A DNA stretch of 64,000 bases from a virus. Below the pieces are notes generated by a model. That model saw only the letters and a program-made list of their open reading frames with translations. It was not told the origin of the DNA and did not search any database. Positions 1-37,976 of the stretch are shown here, in pieces. The stretch's first letter is position 1. The number at the start of each line of letters is the position of its first letter. The stretch is from the UHGV virus genome UHGV-1451962; one strand, written 5' to 3'. The position numbers and the translations under genes were made by a program.

Positions 1-482
1 TTGATAAACCAAATTTAAGTTTAAATATTTTATTACCTAAAAATGAACAAACTTTATTTGCTTTTGATAGATATTCAGAATTTTTATTTGCTGGAAAATG
101 CTGGCAAGTACAAGCCCCAGATTCGATTTCAATGAAGAATATTATTGAAGTTAATGCCGAAGAATATTATATTAATAAGGAAACAGATGATAAAATAGAA
201 GAAATTAAAAATGGTTTAGTTATAGAGCCTGTTGATCCTTCTCCTGATACAACTATAAAGGGAGAAACTTTTATTAAGCCTAATATTGCTGAAATATATG
301 AAGCCCCAGATGTGGGAGGAAAATGGAAAGTTGTTGAAAATTATCCAGTTTGTTTAATTCCTATTGATGATTTGCGGGTTAAAGTGATTTGGCAAAAATC
401 GGTTAGTGGACAATTTACTTTAGAATGGTATAAAGACCATATTGTAGAAACAAAAACAATAGTGGTAGAATCATTATTCTAA
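1..482 (+). CDS. hypothetical virion-module protein; 5' end lies outside the window
   Basis: Frame 3 is open from base 3 to the stop at 480-482. I translated 3..131 as DKPNLSLNILLPKNEQTLFAFDRYSEFLFAGKCWQVQAPDSIS with no stop, so track entry 132..482 is only the distal part of a longer gene. Confidence 0.5.
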   Translation, partial: DKPNLSLNILLPKNEQTLFAFDRYSEFLFAGKCWQVQAPDSISMKNIIEVNAEEYYINKETDDKIEEIKNGLVIEPVDPSPDTTIKGETFIKPNIAEIYEAPDVGGKWKVVENYPVCLIPIDDLRVKVIWQKSVSGQFTLEWYKDHIVETKTIVVESLF

Positions 483-501
483 AGTTAAAGGAGAAAAAGG
501 A

Positions 502-1038
502 ATGAAAAAAAATTTATATGAATTTCCAAAGTCTAGTTTTTTGGGTATGGCCAAAGATACAGCTTTGATTATAAATAAAATTTTAACCAATAAAAATATT
601 TTAAAATTAATTTATTATACTTCTAAAGATTGGAAAGATAAACCTGATTTAAATAGTCAACAAATAAAAGAATTATTTGAAAATAAACAAATATCTAATA
701 TACCTAAGATTACTGTTTTTCCAGATAAAGCTACTTATCTGAGAATTAGTTATGATGATTTTGTTCCGAATGATACTAATCCTTATTATAGAAATCATAT
801 GATAGATATTAAAATTATTTGCCATTATGATTCATGGGATTTAGGAGATTTTGAGTTAAGACCTTATCGCATAGCTGGGGAGTTAGATTCTATTTTAGAT
901 GGACAACATTTAACTGGAATTGGAGAATTACAGTTTCTTAGTGCAGAACAAATTCTCATAGATAATGAATTTGCAGGAATTAATTTAAGATATTGGGCCG
1001 TTAGAGGTAATGAAGATAAGGTTAATCCTTTGAATTAA
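502..1038 (+). CDS. hypothetical virion-module protein
   Basis: 178-aa ORF. The ATG is preceded by the AAAGGAGAAAAAGG SD. It is tightly packed with its + strand neighbours. No motif recognised. Confidence 0.55.
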   Translation: MKKNLYEFPKSSFLGMAKDTALIINKILTNKNILKLIYYTSKDWKDKPDLNSQQIKELFENKQISNIPKITVFPDKATYLRISYDDFVPNDTNPYYRNHMIDIKIICHYDSWDLGDFELRPYRIAGELDSILDGQHLTGIGELQFLSAEQILIDNEFAGINLRYWAVRGNEDKVNPLN

Positions 1039-1039
1039 T

Positions 1040-1774
1040 ATGGATATTAAATTAGCATTAATGGCAGGTGTAGATATTCCTATACCTGAGTTACAAGCAA
1101 TTATTCATCAACCGCAATTAAAAGAAATTGCGAGGATGGGTGAACAAAATTTTTTTATGGCAATTCATTATTTATGTTTAAATAAAGAAGCTTTGTTAGA
1201 GGACGAAAGTCTTTTACAGAGTTTAACAAATTTTCAAGTATTGATGAAAGTTATTGAACAATCAGAAGATGCTGAGAAGAAAATAGCTTTAATAACTTTA
1301 CTTTCTCTTTTGTTTCCAGGATTTAAACCAATAATTACTCCAAAGAGCATTATTCTTAATAATTTGCAAACAAAACAAAGCATTTTGATAGATGATAATA
1401 ATTATGTTTTTTTACAAGAAATATTAAAACAAATGTTTTGTATAAGTAGTATTTTTCAGGGAGATAATGTTGTTTATAATCCTGCGAATGAAGCTGCAAA
1501 AAAAATTGCCGATAAATTAATGAAAGGCAGAAAAAGAGTTGCAGAATTAAAGGGAAAAAATCAAGAAAGCGTGTTAAGCAGATATGTTTCTATTTTAACG
1601 ATAGGGATTTCCTCTATGTCTTTAGAAAATTGTCTGGCTTTAACAATATATCAACTATTTGATTTAGTTGAAAGATATAATCTGTTTATTGAATGGGATT
1701 TAAATTTGCGGGTTAAACTTGCAGGTGGAGACCCCAAGCAAGATGCGGAAAATTGGATGAAAAACATTCATTAA
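1040..1774 (+). CDS. hypothetical virion-module protein
   Basis: 244-aa ORF whose ATG abuts the previous stop (TAATATG), suggesting translational coupling. No motif recognised. Confidence 0.55.
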   Translation: MDIKLALMAGVDIPIPELQAIIHQPQLKEIARMGEQNFFMAIHYLCLNKEALLEDESLLQSLTNFQVLMKVIEQSEDAEKKIALITLLSLLFPGFKPIITPKSIILNNLQTKQSILIDDNNYVFLQEILKQMFCISSIFQGDNVVYNPANEAAKKIADKLMKGRKRVAELKGKNQESVLSRYVSILTIGISSMSLENCLALTIYQLFDLVERYNLFIEWDLNLRVKLAGGDPKQDAENWMKNIH

Positions 1775-1795
1775 TTTATAAGGAGGAAATTAAAC

Positions 1796-2737
1796 ATGAG
1801 ATTTGGTGTACGCGAAATCTGTGATGTTGTGTTGCGTGCTAAAGCAAGACAAACTCTAGGTACTCGTACTTTTTATAAGAATGAGCCTGTTCTTTATTTT
1901 GATACTTTAAAGACTTCTAGCCTAGAAGGTCAAGCTACCACAGTTTATGCTCAAGGCGGACGTGGTAACTCTAGATTAATTGCCTGGGAAGGCGAGAAGA
2001 CTCTTACATTTACAATGGAAGATGCACTGCTTTCTCCTGAAAGTTTTGCAATTCTTTCCGGTGCTGGTTTGATGGATGCTTCTGCGGAAGCCCCTATTTA
2101 TGTTCATACTACTTCTCAAGTGCAGGTTGATGCTCAAGGCAAGTTTACTGTGGATGGTAAAATTTGTTGGAATGGCGGTCGTGCACAAGAAGGAAATAAA
2201 GAAGGAACAAATTATGACTACCATAAAGAAGCAGATGTTTTCTGCATGGCTCTTGATGATGCTGGAGAGGTTAAAGTCGAGCCTTGTGTTCCTGCTTCCA
2301 TGACTTATGATGATACTAAGAAGAAAACTACTATTGTTTGTTATGCTGATGCTGAAGGTGTTGAGAAATTAGCTGAAGGTTCTGTTGTTCTTGTTGATTA
2401 TTATGTTAAGAAGATCGGCAATGCTAAGATGATTGAGATTACTCCTGATGAATTTGCTGGTAGTTATTACCTAGAAGGTTCTACTTTATTCCGTAGAGAG
2501 TCCGATGGTGTTGACATGCCTGCTGAGTTCATCATTCCTAATGGTAAGATTCAGTCTAACTTTACTTTCTCTATGGCAAGTTCTGGCGATCCTTCTACCT
2601 TTACCTTTACTATGGATGCTTTCCCTGGATATACTAAGTTTGATCCTACTAAAAAGGTTCTTGCTGCTATTCAGGTAATTGAAGATAGCACTGGTGAAGA
2701 TACCGCTTACCGCGAGAATTGTAAGGCGACTTTTTAA
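1796..2737 (+). CDS. putative major tail (tube) protein
   Basis: 313-aa ORF with a strong SD (AAGGAGGAAATTAAAC-ATG) and locally GC-enriched, biased codon usage typical of abundant virion proteins. A strong terminator closes the unit. It lies upstream of the chaperone-like and tape-measure genes. The N-terminal pattern (..LEGQATTVYAQGGRGNSRLIAWEGEKTLTFTMED..) recalls tail-tube family proteins; this is from memory, not searched. Confidence 0.55.
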   Translation: MRFGVREICDVVLRAKARQTLGTRTFYKNEPVLYFDTLKTSSLEGQATTVYAQGGRGNSRLIAWEGEKTLTFTMEDALLSPESFAILSGAGLMDASAEAPIYVHTTSQVQVDAQGKFTVDGKICWNGGRAQEGNKEGTNYDYHKEADVFCMALDDAGEVKVEPCVPASMTYDDTKKKTTIVCYADAEGVEKLAEGSVVLVDYYVKKIGNAKMIEITPDEFAGSYYLEGSTLFRRESDGVDMPAEFIIPNGKIQSNFTFSMASSGDPSTFTFTMDAFPGYTKFDPTKKVLAAIQVIEDSTGEDTAYRENCKATF

Positions 2738-3126
2738 TTACCCCAAATAGTAACGTTAAAATTAGTCAGCTAGGGAATACCTATTCTTTAGTTGGCACTG
2801 TAGATAAAACTGATATTCCCGTAGAATATCAAGGGCTATTTGGGGATATAGCAACAGAAGATACTTTAAATAAGTATGTGCTTGTTAGATTAAATAATAT
2901 TATTCCTAAAAATGGTGCTACTATTATTCAAAAGAATGAAGCTTTAAAATATTATTATAATAAAGGTGATGTTAATATCACTGAAGTTGGTGGCATTTAT
3001 ACCAAGACTAAGGAATATGATGGAACTGATTCTGATTATGCTTTGTTAATTAAGATTGGTTCTACTGCGGAAGTTACTATTAATGATACTAAATATATTA
3101 TTGATGGTTCTAAATTAACTAATTAA
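2725..3126 (+). CDS. -1-frame ORF continuing from the major tail gene; probable frameshift-generated C-terminal extension (track lists only 2878..3126 from a GTG)
   Basis: Frame 1 is open from 2725 (after the frame-1 stop at 2722-2724) to the stop at 3124-3126. It therefore overlaps the last codons of the frame-2 tail gene (..ACT TTT TAA at 2729-2737). A T5 run lies at 2731-2735. No SD precedes the GTG at 2878, unlike nearly every other gene here. Confidence 0.4.
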   Translation, partial: GDFLITPNSNVKISQLGNTYSLVGTVDKTDIPVEYQGLFGDIATEDTLNKYVLVRLNNIIPKNGATIIQKNEALKYYYNKGDVNITEVGGIYTKTKEYDGTDSDYALLIKIGSTAEVTINDTKYIIDGSKLTN

Positions 3127-3131
3127 TAAAA

Positions 3132-3166
3132 ATAGGGAAGAGTTTTACTCTTCCCTATTTTTTGTT
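3132..3166 (+). terminator. intrinsic terminator after the major-tail unit
   Basis: ATAGGGAAGAG (3132-3142) pairs with CTCTTCCCTAT (3148-3158) around a 5-nt loop, followed by TTTTTTGTTTT. Confidence 0.8.
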
Positions 3167-3179
3167 TTAAGGAGAAAAT

Positions 3180-4586
3180 ATGAGTAGTGATTTTGTTTTT
3201 GAATATGATGGAACTAGTTATCCTAATATTCATAGTAAACCTGAACATTATATAGGAGGAACTTTAATTCCTTATGCTCAAACAACAAATAAAATGGCAG
3301 CTATCAAAACAAGATACTTAAATATGATGAAAGCGCAACTCGCCAGCCAACAAACAGATGCTAAAAAGAAAGCTTTTATAGAAGGTATGGAATTAGCAAA
3401 ATTTGAAAAAATGGAAAAACAAATAGAAAATAAAATTGTTGAAGAATATAATAAAGCTGCGAGCAAATTAGGAGGAAATATTGGTGGATATAATATGGGA
3501 GTTGATGGATATGTTGCAGCTTTAAAATCAGGAGATAAAGATGGAGCAATAAAATCATTAGCTCAAATAATAGCTGTTTTTCACCAAAATAAAGATGCTG
3601 TTGCTTTATATGAAATGTTAAAAGATAATCCTCAACAAATTTATTCTGATATTTCTATAAACGAATTAATTAATGTTCAAGCTTTTATGAAAGTTATTGA
3701 AGCTGCTATGAATGGAGAAAATTATCGGAATACTCTAAATTCAATTTTAACTAAACCTTCAGAAGCTTTAGCAGCTTTAATAGGAACATATGCTGAAGCA
3801 AAAAGTGATACAGAAGTAAAAGATTTATTACTTGGTACTCAATCACAAAATATTAGAGTAAGTTTTAGTGGAGAATTTAAAGAAATTCAATCTAAATCCG
3901 CGGATATTAGTTTAGGAAATTCATATTTTTCTTATAATATGGGTGGTTCACAAGGCAGTCAAGGTATTGAGCTTTATGACACTTTTGATGTAGAAACTTT
4001 TGCTACTGTAAAGACTTATAGAACCGCGGGAGGTTTGTCTTTAACAAGTTATTCTGGAAAAAATTCTTTCTTAATTCCAGCTTTACATCAATTGTATGGT
4101 GGTGGAAACTCAATTGATTATCAAATATATAATACTTTAGCTTTTAGTGCAGGGCAAGAATCAGGAGCATTGGATACTAACTTTAGAATTATTCGGCAGG
4201 ATTTAATTGCTAAATTTGCGGAAAACTTTTTAATTGGTTTTAATACGGCTGAAGCACAAAGAGTATTAGTATATAATTTTAGAGCATATCCAGTATTAAC
4301 TATATTAGCTGATATAGTTAATGATGCTAAAAATGCGGTTAGAGAAGGAAATTTATATGGTTCTTTAAGTAGTGGTGATTTATTTAGTATTTCTTTGACT
4401 AAAAGTGCTGTTGATAATAGTTGGGTTGGTCAAAAAGATATAACAAATAAAGCAAATAAAGCTGTTCGTGTAAAAAGAGCTTATAATCAAATTAATAGTA
4501 TTGCAATGCAAGGTCATATTAGTGGTAGATATGTTAGTTCTAATTTAAGAAAATATTTAACAGCGGCGAATGGAATACCTATTTAA
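3180..4586 (+). CDS. hypothetical structural protein (468 aa)
   Basis: Long ORF with SD AAGGAGAAAATA-ATG, lying between the tail-tube-like gene and the chaperone-like gene. No motif recognised. Confidence 0.55.
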   Translation: MSSDFVFEYDGTSYPNIHSKPEHYIGGTLIPYAQTTNKMAAIKTRYLNMMKAQLASQQTDAKKKAFIEGMELAKFEKMEKQIENKIVEEYNKAASKLGGNIGGYNMGVDGYVAALKSGDKDGAIKSLAQIIAVFHQNKDAVALYEMLKDNPQQIYSDISINELINVQAFMKVIEAAMNGENYRNTLNSILTKPSEALAALIGTYAEAKSDTEVKDLLLGTQSQNIRVSFSGEFKEIQSKSADISLGNSYFSYNMGGSQGSQGIELYDTFDVETFATVKTYRTAGGLSLTSYSGKNSFLIPALHQLYGGGNSIDYQIYNTLAFSAGQESGALDTNFRIIRQDLIAKFAENFLIGFNTAEAQRVLVYNFRAYPVLTILADIVNDAKNAVREGNLYGSLSSGDLFSISLTKSAVDNSWVGQKDITNKANKAVRVKRAYNQINSIAMQGHISGRYVSSNLRKYLTAANGIPI

Positions 4587-4589
4587 AAT

Positions 4590-4618
4590 TTGCTTTTTTG
4601 TTAAATAAGTAGTATAAT
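4590..4618 (+). promoter_or_regulatory. sigma-A/sigma-70-type promoter
   Basis: TTGCTT (4590-4595), a 17-nt spacer, then TATAAT (4613-4618), about 30 nt upstream of the 4651 start. Confidence 0.55.
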
Positions 4619-4650
4619 AAAAATAGAAATGATAAAAAGGAGATTTAAAA

Positions 4651-5199
4651 ATGTCTAAAGTTACTTTTAGTAAAATAAATATGAAAATGAAGATGAAAGA
4701 TGAATATGCGACTATTTATCTTAATCCAGAACTTGATGAGGAATTTAAAGTAGAAGTGCGTCAATATTTACCAATTGAGCAAAAGGCAGCTTTAATTACT
4801 TTTATTGCAGAAAACGCGATTGATGAAAAGACTGGTTGCTTTAGTGAAATTAGAATTGAGACTTATTTTGCTCTTGCTATTGCTAAGTATTATGCAGGAA
4901 TTGCTTTTACTGACAAGCAAATTGAAAATGCTGCTAAAATTTATGATGTATTAGAGAGTAATGGAGTTTTTACTAGAATTATGAGTGCTATTCCTGAATC
5001 TGAGTTTAACTTTTTAACTAATGCCGTTAGTAAAACTATTGCCGATATTGCAAGATTTAATAATTCTTTTGCCGGAATGTTGAATATGATCTCTGATAAT
5101 GCGGGCGGCATGGATGAACAGTTTACTGAAATTTTAGAGAAGATTAAGAATGGTGAAGGTTTAGAGACTCTTTCTGAAATTAAGAATATTGTTGGCTAA
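4651..5199 (+). CDS. putative tail assembly chaperone (by position)
   Basis: 182-aa acidic ORF with SD AAAAGGAGATTTAAAA-ATG, immediately upstream of the tape-measure gene. The assignment is positional only. Confidence 0.35.
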   Translation: MSKVTFSKINMKMKMKDEYATIYLNPELDEEFKVEVRQYLPIEQKAALITFIAENAIDEKTGCFSEIRIETYFALAIAKYYAGIAFTDKQIENAAKIYDVLESNGVFTRIMSAIPESEFNFLTNAVSKTIADIARFNNSFAGMLNMISDNAGGMDEQFTEILEKIKNGEGLETLSEIKNIVG

Positions 5200-5250
5200 A
5201 TTAAGATAATATATTTCTAATAAATATTAAAATTTTATAGAGAATTTTTT

Positions 5251-5286
5251 AAAGCTCTGAGAAATTTCTCAGAGCTTTAATTTTTT
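5251..5286 (+). terminator. intrinsic terminator
   Basis: AAAGCTCTGAGA (5251-5262) pairs with TCTCAGAGCTTT (5267-5278) around a 4-nt loop, then AATTTTTT. Confidence 0.75.
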
Positions 5287-5316
5287 ATATGCACAAAGAG
5301 TGAAAGGAGATTAATT

Positions 5317-8300
5317 ATGGCTAAAAGACTTAATTATGAAGTAGGCTTTACTGGCGATACTTCACAATTAAAAGCGTCTTTAAATGATGCTGTAAAAGCT
5401 TTACAAAAATTAGGTACTTCTTCAACTACTCAAATGACTCAGGGTATGCGGGAAGCATCTAAATCTGCATTAGAATTAGCTAATAATTTAAAAACTGCTA
5501 CTAATCAAGAAACAGGAAAATTAGATTTAGTAACTTTTAATAGAAATTTAGCTAATAGTAAGATGACCATTAGTGATTATGCTAAGCAATTATCTCAATT
5601 AGGCCCTACTGGTCAGCAAGCTTTTATGAAAGTTGCGCAAGCAGTTACTTCTGCGGAATTACCAATGAGACGTACTAATAAAGTATTGGATGAATTGTGG
5701 ACAACAATGAAAAATACTGCTCGTTGGCAATTAACCTCAAGTGCGTTGCATGGATTTATGGGAGCTTTAAATACTTGTGTTGGATATTCTAAAGCTTTAG
5801 ATAAATCTTTAAATTCTATCAGAATTGTTACTGAACAATCAGCTGAACAAATGGCTGATTTTGCAGTTCAAGCTAATAGTGCTGCAAAAAATTTAAGTAC
5901 AACAACAACAGATTATACGGATGCAGCATTGATATATTATCAACAAGGTTTAAATGACAAAGAAGTTCTTGATAGAACTGATATTACTATTAAAATGGCC
6001 AATGCCGCAAATGAAAGTGCTCAAGTAGTTTCTGACCAATTAACTGCGGTTTGGAATAACTTTTATGATGGTTCACAATCATTAGAGCATTATGCTGATG
6101 CGATGGTGGCGTTAGGTGCTGCTACTGCTTCTAGTTCAGATGAAATTGCTGGCGGCTTAGAGAAGTTTGCATCAATCGCAGACATGATTGGGTTAAGCTT
6201 TGATTATGCTGCTTCTGCTTTAGCAACAATTACTGCTACAACTCGTCAAAGCGAAGATGTTGTTGGTACTGCTTTGAAAACTATTTTTGCTCGTATTCAA
6301 GGTTTGAATTTAGGAGAGACCCTTGAAGATGGCACTGATTTAAATAAATATTCAGAAGCTTTGAGCAAAGTTGGTGTTTCAATTAAAGATTCTAATGGCG
6401 ATTTGCGTAATATGGATGCTATCTTAGATGATATAGGCGCAAAATGGGGTACTTTAACAAAAGACCAACAAGTAGCATTAGCGCAAACAGTAGCCGGCGT
6501 TCGTCAATACAACCAGTTAGTTTCTTTAATGGATAATTGGGATTTCTTTGAAGATAATTTAAAGATTGCCCAAAATTCTGAAGGTGAATTAAATAAGCAG
6601 GCTGATATTTATGCAGAATCTTGGGAGGCCGCGAGAAAAAGAGTTAAAGCTGCGGCAGAAGATATTTATGATAGCATTTTGAATCCTGAGAGCATTGTTG
6701 CTATTGATGATGTTTTAACTCCATTTTTAAGTGGAATAGCGCAAGTTGTTAATGCTTTAGGTGGATTAAAAGGTATTGCTTTAGTTGTTGGTTCTGTCCT
6801 TACTTCTGTTTATAGTGGTAAATTGGTAAATGGTTTACAAAATTTTGCTACTAATATTCAGATTATGACTGGACTTCAAGGAAAATTAACAAGAAGCTTA
6901 CAAGAACAAACCGTAACTGAAGCAGAAAATCTTGATATTATAATTGGTGGTAATCGTGCTTTAGAAACTGAAATTTCTTTGATGCGAGAAAAAGTTCAGT
7001 TACAAGGTATGATTAATAAATATACCAAGAATTATGACCAAAGTCAAATGTTACAAGTCAATCAGCGAGTAGGCGTTATTGATGCTTTGCGTCAACAAAT
7101 TATGGCTTCTGCTCAAAAACAAACTGCTTTGTTGGGTGAAGCTGAAGAATTTAAAACAACTATATTGTTAGATATAGAGCCAAAACCTGGTTGGGAAGAA
7201 AGATTTAGACAGAAAATTTTACAATTTAATACTAATATGGTTAATGGGCCATTAAAAAATCTTAATTCTGTCTTTTTATTTGATGAAAAAGATGATATAA
7301 CAAGAACTACTGAAAAAGTTACAGCAAGTATGCAAAAGTTAGCTTCTCAAGCTAGTTCTATAGAAGCAGTAAGACGAGCTTATAGCAATTTAAATATAGA
7401 TCAAAAAGAAAGTGCCGTTGTTTTACAAGAATTAATTCAAAAGACTGGTTTATGGAAAGCAGAAATGCAAAATTGGTCTACTCCTAAATTACAAGAATTT
7501 TTGAATAACTTAGGTACTCAATCAATAGAAGCTTCTAAAGGGATGCAACTTTTAAAACAAGCTTTAATGGAATTAAGTTATTCTCCTGAAGCTATTGATC
7601 AATTTATTAATTCGATAAGAAGATTAGCCGCTGAAGAACATAGTGCCGCAGAATATACAAGATTAATTAATGAAGAAATAAAAAAATTTACGAACAGTTT
7701 GCAAACTGGTAGTATTCAAAGTGAATCGGGTTGGGCAAAAACTGTTGTAAGCATGTCTAATCATCTTATGAATTTCGGAATGACTCTTTCCGCAGTTAGT
7801 AATATGGGTAAAGTTTTCAAAGAATCTATGGAAGGAAATATTACTGCGGGAGAAGCTTTCATTCAAATTATGACTAATTTGGGTATGATTTTGATGAGTG
7901 GCAGTAGCCTTTTCATGGCTTTGTCAAAATCAATGGGTGCTCTTGTTTCAGTTTATACTGGTGTAAATACTTCAGTAGCAGCTCTTACTTTTGTTACAAA
8001 ATTAAATACTGCGGCTGAAGAAGGAAATATAGCTGCAAAAATAGCTAATGTTGCAATTACAAAATTGCTTACTGTTTCAGAAGGTAGTTTAGCTGCTGCT
8101 ATGGGTATAACTATTGGCGTTTTAGCTCTTTTTGCGGCTGGAATTGTGTTTGCTGTAAAAATAATTGATGGTTTAATTGTAACTCAAAAAGAAGCCAGTC
8201 AAGCTATTGCGGATGCTACTCAAAATTATACTGATCAAAAGAGCAAATTAGATGAGTTAAATAGTTCTTTAGAGCAAACTAGACAAAAGATAGAAGAATT

Positions 8301-30225: not shown

Positions 30226-30254
30226 ATTATACCAGAAAATTTTTAAAAAGTCAA
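30226..30254 (-). promoter_or_regulatory. consensus promoter for avd-TR-RT
   Basis: On the - strand: TTGACT (30254-30249), a 17-nt spacer ending in TGG, then TATAAT (30231-30226), about 35 nt upstream of the avd start. Confidence 0.65.
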
Positions 30255-30315
30255 AGAAAAAAAATTTTTAGAAAAAATTTTTTTCCCAGAAAAGGTGAAA
30301 GCATTTTTATACTAT

Positions 30316-30341
30316 GGCATTGGCCCTTTTGGGCCAATGCC
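30316..30341. promoter_or_regulatory. perfect GC-rich hairpin/cruciform just 3' of the VR
   Basis: GGCATTGGCCC (30316-30326), TTTT loop, GGGCCAATGCC (30331-30341). It lies 29 nt beyond the target stop codon. No U-tract follows on either strand. Confidence 0.6.
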
Positions 30342-30369
30342 AATATAACCTTACTGTATAACTTTACAG

Positions 30370-32133
30370 TTATCCAATAACGAAAGCGGGCGCGAGGTAA
30401 CGGTAGTTGGCGTAGTAGGTAAAGTCCGCACCACCATCAGAGTCGACACGGCACACATAGCCCGTGTAGTCCGAGTAGTAGTTGCGAGACCGCTCCCAAT
30501 ACCATTTGGAATCTCCTGAACTGTTACCATTAGCATCTTGAATGTTTTTTATACGGGAGCTGTCACTTGTGTAATAATCATAAGCAGCATTATATCCTTT
30601 AGTACATTCTGCATTGGAAACAGTAGAATTAGCAGTGCTGATTGGAGAATAACTATCTAATCCCATTTCTCTCTCAGAAGGAATCCAAACAGTTTCGTTA
30701 TTATAACTAACATTAGCACTTCTATTATCATCCCAATTATCGCAAGTACCTTTAGATACTGTTTTTATAGATGCTTTAGCAGCACAAGCATTATAAAAAT
30801 TTTGACAATAACTTCTAGCATTAGAACCAATCCATTGTGCGCTATTATCACCAAAAGTAGTCATATTCGGCAAGAGATAAACACTATGAAAAGCTAAAGT
30901 TTTATCTCCATCTTTGTCATAGCCAATACAACGCATTGTAACAGCATTTGCTCCTAAAACATTAGTAGATAAATTCATCTTTTTAGTTTTACCAACTAAA
31001 GCTTGACGTTCTGAAGCAGAAGAATTGTTAAGCCAAGACTTTAAGCCAGCCCACCAAGAAGCATCTCCCGCAGCACTCTCATTTCCCCAAGTCCAATATG
31101 TAGCAGTAGCAGTAATTTTTTTATTCGCGGGAGTTGTATAATTGGTACTGGCTGCTATTGATACAGTAATAGTAGCAGTTCCCGCGGTTGTACCATTGCC
31201 TTTAATGGTAATTGTTTTACCGCTTACTGTTGCTGAAGCCACATTAGAATTAGTAGAAGTTACAGAAATTGTACCAGTAGAATTAGTGGTCACAGTAACT
31301 TTTACACCAGTAGAATAATTAGATGCGTCAATAGAAACAGTAGAAGTGCTTAGACTTAATGTTCCTGTTGCTTTTTGAATAGACCAATCAACATTTTTCG
31401 CGGTTGTTGTCTTATCAGGCCATCTGTAATTATTTTTAGGAGTAAAAGTAGCTGTATATTTTCCTGCATTAATTCCCGATGTAGTTCCTCCAATAGTCAT
31501 GTAACTTGTATTATAATTTGACCAATTTGGACTTTGCGAATTGGCGTTATAAGTTAAAGTTCCAGTTTGAGAAGGAATAGGAACTGTTTTTCTTTCTACT
31601 GTTACAGAAAAAGTAGTAGTTTTAGTAATACTATTTTCTGTATAAGAAACAGTAATTGTTTGAGTACCAACTGTATTTAAAACAGAAGGTGAAGTTGTCC
31701 AACCAGAAACAGTAGCGGTTTTACCATCAGAATAAGTGGCAGTAACAGACATTCCGGCAGATTCAAATGTCTCGCCATATTCATAAATTGTCTTAGTTGG
31801 TTTTGTGCTTGTGATGCTGGTTAGTGCATGGATAACAGTAACTGCTTGCTCGGCGGTACAAGTAACTCCTCCTTCAGAGTAAGTAATAGTAACTTTAGTT
31901 ACTCCATCAGTTAAAGGAGAAGGTGTTACAGTATATCCAGTTACCGCAGTAGAAGAAACAACAATATTATCAATGGCATAATTGGCAGTTATAACCATTC
32001 CTGTTGTTTCAAATTCTTGTCCAGCAACGTAAGATGTACGGTTTGGTGGAGTAGTAACTTCAATAGAGTGGAGTGCTATTGAGCTTCCGCCACCTTTTCC
32101 GCCTTGTTCAGTTAAAATGCATTTAACAGGCAA
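30370..32133 (-). CDS. DGR target protein: Ig-like repeats plus a C-terminal lectin-fold-like variable domain (putative receptor-binding or fibre protein)
   Basis: The track ORF 30370..32154 begins inside its own SD (TTG ATA AGG AGG). The more likely start is the TTG at 32133, 9 nt after GGAGG. There are repeated ~90-aa segments (..VTGYTVTPSPLTDGVTKVTITYSEGGVTCTAEQAVTV.. / ..VSGWTTSPSVLNTVGTQTITVSYTENSITKTTTFSVTV..). The C-terminus ..WYWERSRNYYSDYTGYVCRVDSDGGADFTYYANYRYLAPAFVIG is the VR. Confidence 0.85.
   Translation of the reverse strand: MPVKCILTEQGGKGGGSSIALHSIEVTTPPNRTSYVAGQEFETTGMVITANYAIDNIVVSSTAVTGYTVTPSPLTDGVTKVTITYSEGGVTCTAEQAVTVIHALTSITSTKPTKTIYEYGETFESAGMSVTATYSDGKTATVSGWTTSPSVLNTVGTQTITVSYTENSITKTTTFSVTVERKTVPIPSQTGTLTYNANSQSPNWSNYNTSYMTIGGTTSGINAGKYTATFTPKNNYRWPDKTTTAKNVDWSIQKATGTLSLSTSTVSIDASNYSTGVKVTVTTNSTGTISVTSTNSNVASATVSGKTITIKGNGTTAGTATITVSIAASTNYTTPANKKITATATYWTWGNESAAGDASWWAGLKSWLNNSSASERQALVGKTKKMNLSTNVLGANAVTMRCIGYDKDGDKTLAFHSVYLLPNMTTFGDNSAQWIGSNARSYCQNFYNACAAKASIKTVSKGTCDNWDDNRSANVSYNNETVWIPSEREMGLDSYSPISTANSTVSNAECTKGYNAAYDYYTSDSSRIKNIQDANGNSSGDSKWYWERSRNYYSDYTGYVCRVDSDGGADFTYYANYRYLAPAFVIG
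30388..30491 (-). repeat. DGR variable repeat (VR), encoding the last ~35 codons of the target protein
   Basis: Pairs with the TR. There are 21 differences; 20 are at positions where the TR coding strand has A, and 14 of 15 TR AAY codons differ. The shared GC-rich 3' end CCTCGCGCCCG is IMH-like. Confidence 0.9.
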
Positions 32134-37553: not shown

Positions 37554-37976
37554 ATGGAAATTACAGCCAATGCTGCTCAATCAGTTGCAGCCAATCAAAA
37601 TGTTCTTATGACTGATACAGTAGTTGGTGGAAGTTGTTCAATGGTTCATCGTAATGGTAGTGGATTAGTTACTTTGCGCGGCCTGGCTAGCACCCAGTGC
37701 CGCGCTCGTTTTAGAGTAACTTTTGGCGCTAATATAGCTGTTCCTACTGGTGGAACCGCAGGTGCTATTTCTTTAGCTATTGCTATTAACGGCGAACCTG
37801 TTGCTACAACAACCATGACAACTACTCCAGCCGCAGTCGATCAGTACAATAACGTGTTTAGTAGTATCTTTTTAGATGTTCCTAAAGGTTGTTGTTCTCA
37901 GATTAGTATAAAAAATATTAGCACTCAAACAGTTAGCGTTCAAAATGCTAATCTAATTGTTGAACGTGTTGCTTAA
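37554..37976 (+). CDS. hypothetical beta-rich protein; ending resembles the BclA C-terminal (TNF/C1q-like) domain
   Basis: 140 aa with SD TTGGAGGATAACTAATTT-ATG. The ending ..SVQNANLIVERVA resembles my recollection of the Bacillus BclA C-terminal domain ending ..SASIIIEKVA. One line (37681-37740) has 53% GC by hand count. Confidence 0.35.
   Translation: MEITANAAQSVAANQNVLMTDTVVGGSCSMVHRNGSGLVTLRGLASTQCRARFRVTFGANIAVPTGGTAGAISLAIAINGEPVATTTMTTTPAAVDQYNNVFSSIFLDVPKGCCSQISIKNISTQTVSVQNANLIVERVA

Follow-up and report, generated by a model that had tools for sequence, protein, structure and literature searches.

This report concerns the end of the major tail (tube) protein gene in the virus genome UHGV-1451962, where a programmed −1 frameshift very probably appends a 130-residue domain to the tube protein. 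The window analysed, meaning the whole stretch of 64,000 nucleotides (nt), comes from a large siphophage and includes its late-gene cluster. The gene order there is a YomW-like gene, a YomV-like gene, the tube gene, an open reading frame (ORF) of 82 amino acids (aa), a gene for a 468-aa protein, a YomO-like gene (4651–5199, separate from the tube gene) and a 2871-aa tape measure gene. The tube gene occupies 1796–2737 on the plus strand, the strand of all the features of the locus described below, and its zero frame encodes 313 aa of YomU_Tube type according to the ORF list and family matches. Its identity as the major tail (tube) protein gene follows from the PHROG matches (phrog_2729, E 3e-56; a weak match to phrog_4971, 'major tail protein'), from the Pfam family PF27173 (YomU_Tube) carried by tube orthologues on related contigs, from GenBank relatives annotated as tail tube or major tail protein (Enterococcus phages EF1 and VRE9, the Bacillus Tsamsa group and the Lactococcus 949 group) and from its position 5' of the tape measure gene. 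A sequence search of the PDB with the tube protein returned only noise, a literature search on 'YomU' yielded unrelated papers only, and ARAGORN found no tRNA genes in the 64-kb window.

The preliminary description of this locus had the tube gene ending in GCG ACT TTT TAA, with the stop at 2735–2737, and the −1 frame open from 2725 to 3126; both readings hold. A TAA at 2722–2724 closes the −1 frame on its 5' side, and from 2725 it is open as far as the stop codon at 3124–3126, with the translation GDFLITPNSNVK..., which starts GDFLITPNS. Joined to ..NCKATF of the tube protein, this frame supplies an extension at 2734–3126, comprising 130 codons (LITPNS...SKLTN) and the stop codon. The 82-aa ORF (2878–3126) lies within it, beginning at the GTG chosen by the gene caller. 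A search of the locus for terminators found none between the tube ORF and the 82-aa ORF; an intrinsic terminator (3128–3162, a 16-bp stem followed by a T run) closes the tube transcription unit 3' of the extension, in keeping with the earlier placement of a strong terminator only past 3126. Relatives that lack the extension carry a terminator immediately 3' of the tube-gene stop.

Conservation was assessed in 14 distinct sequences, namely the window and 13 further versions recovered by searching metagenome protein and contig collections with the extension. They represent more than 20 independent assemblies, and several of the contigs measure 100–137 kb. The sequences fall into clade A (the window, L005, L006, L008 and L010), with 83–97% amino-acid identity, and clade B, with nine sequences at approximately 41–51% identity. 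Megablast of window positions 1–6000 against GenBank phages gave no match, and scans of IMG/VR with the extension profile and with the homologue P0023 (described below) were equally negative. The nearest GenBank phages by protein similarity (Enterococcus EF1, VRE9, MT835936 and Phass-1) do not carry the extension, and thus they could not serve to test its conservation.

The putative shift site, T_TTT_TAA (2731–2737), consists of a T5 run (2731–2735) that contains the last sense codon, TTT (2732–2734), and runs into the TAA stop. Re-pairing of tRNA-Phe on TTT 2731–2733 would be perfect. All 14 sequences have a slippery motif set directly against the tube stop, in three interchangeable forms that permit re-pairing of tRNA in the −1 frame, by a single tRNA on U_UUU in the window. 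In clade A, TTT_TAA is preceded by ACT, GCT or GTT, giving a T5 or T6 run, and clade B has G_GGG_GAA_TAA or, in three lineages, G_GGA_AAA_TAA, where G_GGA_AAA is a canonical X_XXY_YYZ heptamer in the correct phase. The conservation check suggested in the preliminary description accordingly came out in its favour: the slippery run is kept, and none of the relatives has a stop in the −1 frame between the tube stop and the GTG. An upstream Shine-Dalgarno (SD)-like stimulator of the dnaX kind is not claimed here, as an AAGG 5 nt upstream occurs in clade A only and nothing comparable is common to clade B.

Downstream of the shift site lies a predicted three-way-junction RNA of 105 nt (2741–2845), a putative frameshift stimulator located within codons 3–38 of the extension. 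RNA folding gives helices P1 (2741–2751 paired with 2835–2845), P2 (2765–2778 with 2783–2796) and P3 (2811–2818 with 2824–2831). After the stop codon only 2738–2740 remain as spacer, so that 6 nt in all separate the UUU codon from the first base pair; with 5 nt in clade B, both clades place a stable structure at the classical distance, within the range of about 5–9 nt. The window structure has a minimum free energy (MFE) of −39.4 kcal/mol (z −4.2 against dinucleotide shuffles), and clade B forms the same architecture at −44.7 kcal/mol (z −6.4 against shuffles); across lineages the three-way junction ranges from −36 to −49 kcal/mol, with z from −4 to −6. Among 6389 windows of 110 nt across the 64 kb, the structure ranks fourth in stability. 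Moreover, none of 1000 synonymous recodings of the same peptide was as stable (z −6.4 for the window, −4.8 to −6.8 for five lineages), and thus the stability of the fold is not a side effect of the protein sequence.

Comparative analysis supports the same fold. RNAalifold recovered P1, P2 and P3 within each clade, and P1 and P3 across the clades, and compensatory pairs such as C-G to U-A and G-C to A-U were seen across sequences. A covariance model built from clade B only detects the clade A elements, the window among them (2728–2848, 34.8 bits, E 7e-6); it found no match in extension-less relatives or in 80 other YomU-type tube loci, apart from one weak minus-strand match in L104 (25.3 bits, E 0.0045), oriented opposite to the tube gene. 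The covariance-model alignment, which was fitted to the structure, has 94.8% of its cells paired, and both sides have changed in 15 of 40 pairs; the pair counts of the real alignment were reached by none of 500 shuffles, and slid controls pair at 39–45%. Searching Rfam 15 gave no match at the gathering threshold across the 64 kb; within 2600–3200, relaxing the limit to E 10 brought up nothing of relevance. As far as sequence comparison can tell, it is well supported that the three-way junction is conserved with compensatory changes and lies at canonical frameshift spacing.

The product of the −1 frame was modelled with AlphaFold2 from 18 homologues, yielding one compact beta-rich domain, apparently a beta-sandwich, over residues 8–129 (predicted local distance difference test 87.9, predicted template modelling score 0.79); an earlier run with shallower input gave lower confidence. 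Strands 8–13 and 16–22, together with helices, belong to the same modelled domain, and residues 8–47 are part of the fold. According to the model, all 130 residues appear to form a single beta-sandwich domain, possibly of the immunoglobulin (Ig)-like type, a possibility that the preliminary description had marked for checking. The extension matches no Pfam family at E up to 0.1 (Ig-like families Big_2, I-set and fn3 included) and no PHROG at 0.01, and a Foldseek search of BFVD gave no significant match; by these searches the domain appears to represent an undescribed sequence family. An exhaustive profile search did uncover homologues fused in frame to other virion proteins. One of these, P0019 (locus L027), is a YomU-type tube protein (phrog_2729) that carries the domain at its C-terminus in one uninterrupted ORF. 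When the 313 aa of the window protein and the extension are conceptually fused, they align with P0019 collinearly across the junction (53% identity over 407 residues, E 2e-131), with ...NC-------KATFLITPNS standing opposite ...PCTVEPGAQTVNFIKSPSD. In P0016 and P0017, which are major head (capsid) proteins (phrog_544), the domain is likewise found in frame at the C-terminus, and bacterial surface proteins that bear SLH or Listeria-Bacteroides repeat domains have it too. Promiscuous Ig-like decoration domains are known to land in frame or out of frame on virion proteins (PMC5009743), and the spread of the present domain over tube and capsid proteins matches this behaviour.

Two further groups of homologues were noted. 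P0023 (168 aa) begins MPSTGGITSPNK.. and retains the N-terminal part of the extension (the RNA-encoding region, including STDIPLKYSSLFGD), followed by another C-terminal domain; this points to domains being swapped downstream of a conserved module of frameshift and linker. P0021, P0025, P0028 and P0029 are small 'standalone' homologues (121–131 aa) that begin near MTGTDV.. without an obvious N-terminal part; these may represent additional extensions of capsid or tail genes, whether frameshifted or mis-called.

The −1 frame bears the marks of coding sequence. It is free of stops in the window and in all 13 further distinct relatives, each of whose tube genes ends in TAA. For the codons between the tube stop and the Val codon at the GTG position, pairwise Nei-Gojobori counts gave, for the −1 frame, a ratio of nonsynonymous to synonymous differences (pN/pS) of 0.20 (clade A) and 0.26 (clade B), against 0.5–2.4 in the other two frames; values for the C-terminal part of the extension in clade A and for the tube C-terminus in clade B were set aside, being distorted by indels. 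The peptide best conserved across both clades, TDIP(V/A)EYQxLFGD, also sits upstream of the GTG. Judged by its substitutions, the stretch between the tube stop and the GTG is coding in the −1 frame and under purifying selection. An ORF that overlaps the tube gene in the −1 frame is thus under coding selection, and it has no conserved initiation signals of its own.

The preliminary description had proposed a −1 frameshift at this place, and the slip motifs, the open frame, the covarying RNA, the heptamer of the sister clade and the in-frame fusion homologue all support it. From these computed features, that is, the sequence signals, their conservation and covariation, the coding selection in the −1 frame and the homology to in-frame fusions, we infer that an RNA-stimulated, programmed −1 frameshift very probably takes place at the end of the tube gene and adds a domain of 130 residues. 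The tube gene would then give two proteins from one mRNA. Most ribosomes would stop at TAA 2735 and release the 313-aa subunit, the short product and presumably the majority form, and a minority would slip back by one base, tRNA-Phe moving from UUU 2732–2734 to UUU 2731–2733, and would go on to read UUA AUU ACC... in the −1 frame to 3126. The long form would measure approximately 443 aa and 48 kDa and would contain the junction ..NCKATF-LITPNSNVK.. (predicted junction peptide ..ATFLITPNSNVK).

Slippage would be promoted by the three-way junction (2741–2845), which lies 6 nt past the UUU codon and, at the mRNA entrance of the ribosome, would offer resistance; slow decoding of the adjacent stop may provide additional help. 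How efficient the shift is, in which state the ribosome slips and what the domain does are, like the shift itself, matters of inference. One option is that slippage occurs during translocation, with UUU in the A site, and this is favoured because of the spacing and of the tandem-slippage heptamer in clade B; the other is that UUU occupies the P site while a slowly decoded UAA stands in the A site. The preliminary description had proposed the latter, with a single tRNA-Phe slipping on the T5 run. Its junction, ..KATF-LITPNS.., stands under either state, but a stop codon in the A site is not required, since UUU may still be in that site when the slip occurs, the situation known from classical −1 frameshifting. 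By analogy with SPP1 gp17.1* and the TpeX proteins of the 936 group, the 130-residue domain would project from the tail tube, probably as a weak adhesin or decoration, and the long form, as a minority subunit, would present an adhesin-like domain along the tail.

Several observations weigh against this proposal. As the preliminary description already acknowledged, the slip site of the window is not a canonical X XXY YYZ heptamer: on U_UUU_UAA only one tRNA could slip, as the preceding ACU cannot re-pair (on GAC), and U-rich sites were less shift-prone than A_AAA_AAG in Escherichia coli tests (PMC5009743). The cross-clade pair counts derive from an alignment fitted to the structure and from related sequences, and as there are two clades only, independent compensatory events are modest in number. 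A weaker fold persists in the in-frame relative L027 (−31.4 kcal/mol, z −2.7; covariance-model score 10.6 bits, not significant), and some of the pairing may therefore come with the conserved peptide as a by-product; the intermediate fold of L027 thus argues only weakly for a link between the RNA fold and frameshifting. Finally, 9 of the 14 sequences have an open TTG or GTG 16–19 nt 5' of the tube stop that could serve as a separate start, and ATT 2737, a possible rare start, is invariant, although it is also a conserved Ile codon.

The last two points would suit a different arrangement, in which the whole domain of 130–154 aa is a separate protein with a weak start, either ATT 2737, used by termination-reinitiation, or the TTG or GTG upstream in relatives. 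TAATT is invariant, a weak AAGG stands 10 nt before the ATT, the open upstream codons are those used by gene callers (P0001, P0005–P0014), and distant phages have a small unrelated gene, coupled through TAATG, at the same place. We nevertheless regard such an arrangement as unlikely. The upstream TTG is directly followed by TAA in 5 of the 14 sequences (the window, L006, L008, L010 and L012), and a TTG or GTG at this distance is a by-product of a conserved zero-frame Cys codon. The ATT encodes a conserved Ile, which the in-frame homologue has as well (FIKSP versus FLITP), and a helix of −39 kcal/mol beginning 2 nt past it would hinder 30S loading. Separate initiation would leave unexplained why three slip motifs are kept exactly at the stop and why the structure sits at frameshift spacing, and elsewhere the domain is a C-terminal fusion of tube and capsid proteins. 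Still less can be said for the 82-aa ORF as an independent gene read from GTG 2878, with the preceding 140 nt a structured non-coding spacer, which we consider very improbable. Callers do report 82–83-aa proteins in four lineages (P0002–P0004), and the GTG is present in the window, L006, L008, L010 and L011; but L005 and L012 have GTT, and most of clade B does not have it as a start. GTG 2878 is preceded by no SD, as had been noted, the longest word in common with AAGGAGGTG being 3 nt, whereas 29 of the 51 window ORFs of at least 100 aa show an SD match of at least 5 nt, typically AAGGAG, a share that is higher among probable plus-strand genes. The supposed spacer is free of stops in all 14 sequences, shows substitutions of coding type in the −1 frame, contains the best-conserved peptide motif, encodes residues 8–47 of the modelled fold and is represented in the in-frame fusion homologues. 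As the whole extension is modelled as one domain, a product started at GTG 2878 would be truncated; most likely the 82-aa ORF is no gene of its own and represents the C-terminal two thirds of that domain. The −1 frame of the window contains no ATG, GTG or TTG 5' of GTG 2878, L012 has none until 93 codons into its 148-codon extension, and no candidate start of the extension in the 14 sequences has an SD. With no conserved or SD-bearing start across the group, independent initiation at such codons cannot explain expression group-wide.

Transcriptional slippage, in which RNA polymerase would add one U in the T5 run and thereby bring both ORFs into frame in some mRNAs, would yield the same protein, and a homopolymer run is indeed found at the junction in every lineage. 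The known productive cases of such slippage use runs of roughly at least eight A or T. The runs here (T5, T6, G5, GGGAAAA) are, at 4–6 nt, shorter than that, and a downstream structure at 5–6 nt together with an X_XXY_YYZ heptamer is a hallmark of ribosomal slippage, which makes the transcriptional route highly improbable (the topic is reviewed in PMC5009743). The break does fall in a homopolymer run, and L027 has a single ORF, as would be expected if a sequencing or assembly error, or a recent inactivating indel, had split one ORF. Such an artefact or pseudogene is hardly credible, given that the same frame layout recurs in more than 20 independent assemblies, in 14 sequences and in two clades with different slip sequences, and that the stop of the short form and the RNA structure are both conserved.

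If the programmed −1 frameshift is accepted, the three-way junction invites a broader and more speculative suggestion. It may be a self-contained, portable 'frameshift plus linker' module, placed inside the coding sequence that it opens and combined with interchangeable slip sites (U_UUU_UAA, G_GGG_GAA_UAA and G_GGA_AAA_UAA) and exchangeable downstream domains, and as such a new class of bacterial −1 stimulator; we offer this tentatively, as a possibility that we would not ourselves expect to prove correct. Were it true, phages could use the module to attach different decoration domains to their tube proteins at sub-stoichiometric levels, and the adjacent stop would make the ratio of the two forms sensitive to release-factor activity or host physiology.

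The frameshift reading has consequences beyond this possibility. It would correct the annotation of a group of large (approximately 130–140 kb) uncultivated gut siphophages, in which the C-terminal decoration domain of the tail tube protein most probably accounts for the '82-aa' and '154-aa hypothetical proteins'. It would also provide a bacterial −1 signal that has comparatively good support, an unusual three-way-junction stimulator and three natural slip-site variants, which lend themselves to mechanistic work. The domain itself would be a previously undescribed virion-decoration domain common to tube, capsid and bacterial surface proteins, and it bears on the adhesion of gut phages to hosts or mucus.

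A number of side observations concern the tube genes of relatives. A Cys codon 4–6 residues before the tube C-terminus (window 2720–2722) is kept in every lineage, the in-frame fusion included, in the contexts NCKATF, ACEAVGE, KCAAVGE and KPCTVEPG. Many relatives have a tube gene broken into two or three pieces by inserted endonuclease ORFs (HNH PF13392, NUMOD4 or LAGLIDADG-like), as in L006 (954–2860), L011 (37–2201), L013 (850–3022), L016 (35–3022) and L019, L020, L023 and L025 (approximately 770–3022); these insertions look like one or two self-splicing introns or inteins. The window tube gene (1796–2737), unlike those split copies, is uninterrupted. More distant YomU-type phages (L039, L048, L049, L076 and similar loci) have a small Lys/Glu-rich ORF of 50–64 aa at approximately 3335–3344, whose ATG overlaps the tube stop (TAATG or TGATG); its frame relation is that of the window extension, and its sequence is unrelated. 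The tube proteins of L028–L034 (match 2501–3728, IMG/VR) exceed 400 aa in a single frame and end in a different C-terminal domain (..TPITAKITKINGDFEKSYTINNKL..), which is another in-frame decoration on the same tube family. The tube homologue of Phage Phass-1 (L003, OQ749652, 4001–5617) is 538 aa long and has a C-terminal tail as well as a large internal insertion. Phass-1 is classified in the 'Caudoviricetes code 15 clade' (TAG recoded), and stop-codon reassignment was considered for that reason; it was rejected, as the tube gene ends in TAA and translation table 11 carries the long window ORFs through without a sign of stop-codon recoding.

Two other structured regions of the window were recorded. 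At 30250–30430, an intergenic segment holds an A/T palindrome (approximately 30258–30284) followed by hairpins, including a perfect 12-bp GC-rich one, GGCAUUGGCCC-UUUU-GGGCCAAUGCC, at approximately 30315–30342, and two further hairpins (MFE −51.7 kcal/mol, z −3.8); probably it marks a boundary between gene modules or acts as a terminator in both directions. Of all 110-nt windows in the 64 kb, the most stable (−42.8 kcal/mol) falls at 37650–37790, within the ORF 37554–37976, where a GC-rich hairpin (GCGCGGCCUGG..CCAG.GCCGCGC) lies in the coding region; because the local G+C content is high, its z is only −2.6.

Among known systems, the G/GT pair of phage lambda arises by a −1 shift on G_GGA_AAx and acts as a chaperone that does not enter the virion. 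The present locus resembles it in the proposed −1 shift in the tail gene cluster and, in clade B, in the slip sequence G_GGA_AAA; unlike in lambda, the shifted gene is that of the tube protein itself and its extension would be a structural decoration domain, so that the locus does not belong to the G/GT type. With the insertion sequence IS911 it would share a bacterial −1 shift and a 3' three-way-junction stimulator, the IS911 element being neither a simple hairpin nor an H-type pseudoknot but a junction with constituent stem-loops (PMC5009743). The two are unrelated in sequence, and whereas IS911 has an upstream SD-like element and A_AAA_AAG, the window has no conserved SD-like element.

Recoded virion genes offer further comparisons. 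The preliminary description had invoked the tail proteins of Listeria phages as precedents; their shift is not −1: tsh of PSA, A118 and A500 uses a +1 shift on CCC_UGA, with the stop as stimulator (PMC5009743). The likeness to tsh, and to MTP/TpeX of the 936 group, lies instead in recoding at the major tail gene's last codon and in a minor, C-terminally extended form that decorates the tail. TpeX extensions show strict binding to host strains (PMC6669499); unlike the window extension, they are longer carbohydrate-binding modules added after an existing Ig domain. In Lactobacillus phage A2 and coliphage T3, an Ig-like C-terminal domain is added by a −1 shift close to the 3' end of a major virion gene (PMC5009743), and the window would agree with both in the direction of the shift, its place at the end of a major virion protein gene and the two products. 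It differs in its slip site and stimulator and in the genes, which are unrelated; moreover, the window shift codon abuts the stop, and the stimulator lies inside the extension coding sequence.

A parallel in design is the gp17.1/gp17.1* pair of the Bacillus siphophage SPP1, which has a Gram-positive host, with two tube forms from one gene, recoding at the end of the ORF and an added domain, a beta-sandwich in SPP1 and apparently here too. In SPP1, gp17.1* is made by a +1 shift, unlike the −1 shift with a large downstream RNA structure proposed here. A review, which speaks of a 'frameshift' without giving its direction, puts the ratio of the two tube forms at approximately 3:1 and describes the extra Ig-like (FN3) domain as dispensable and situated on the tube exterior (PMC8718954). 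The tube families differ, that of the window being of YomU type, and the added domains have no detectable sequence similarity (no Pfam FN3 match). The strategy is already known from SPP1, A2, T3 and the Listeria phages, and its concepts are unchanged by the present locus; to these it adds a covarying three-way junction absent from Rfam, natural slip-site variants and an undescribed family of decoration domains found on both tube and capsid.

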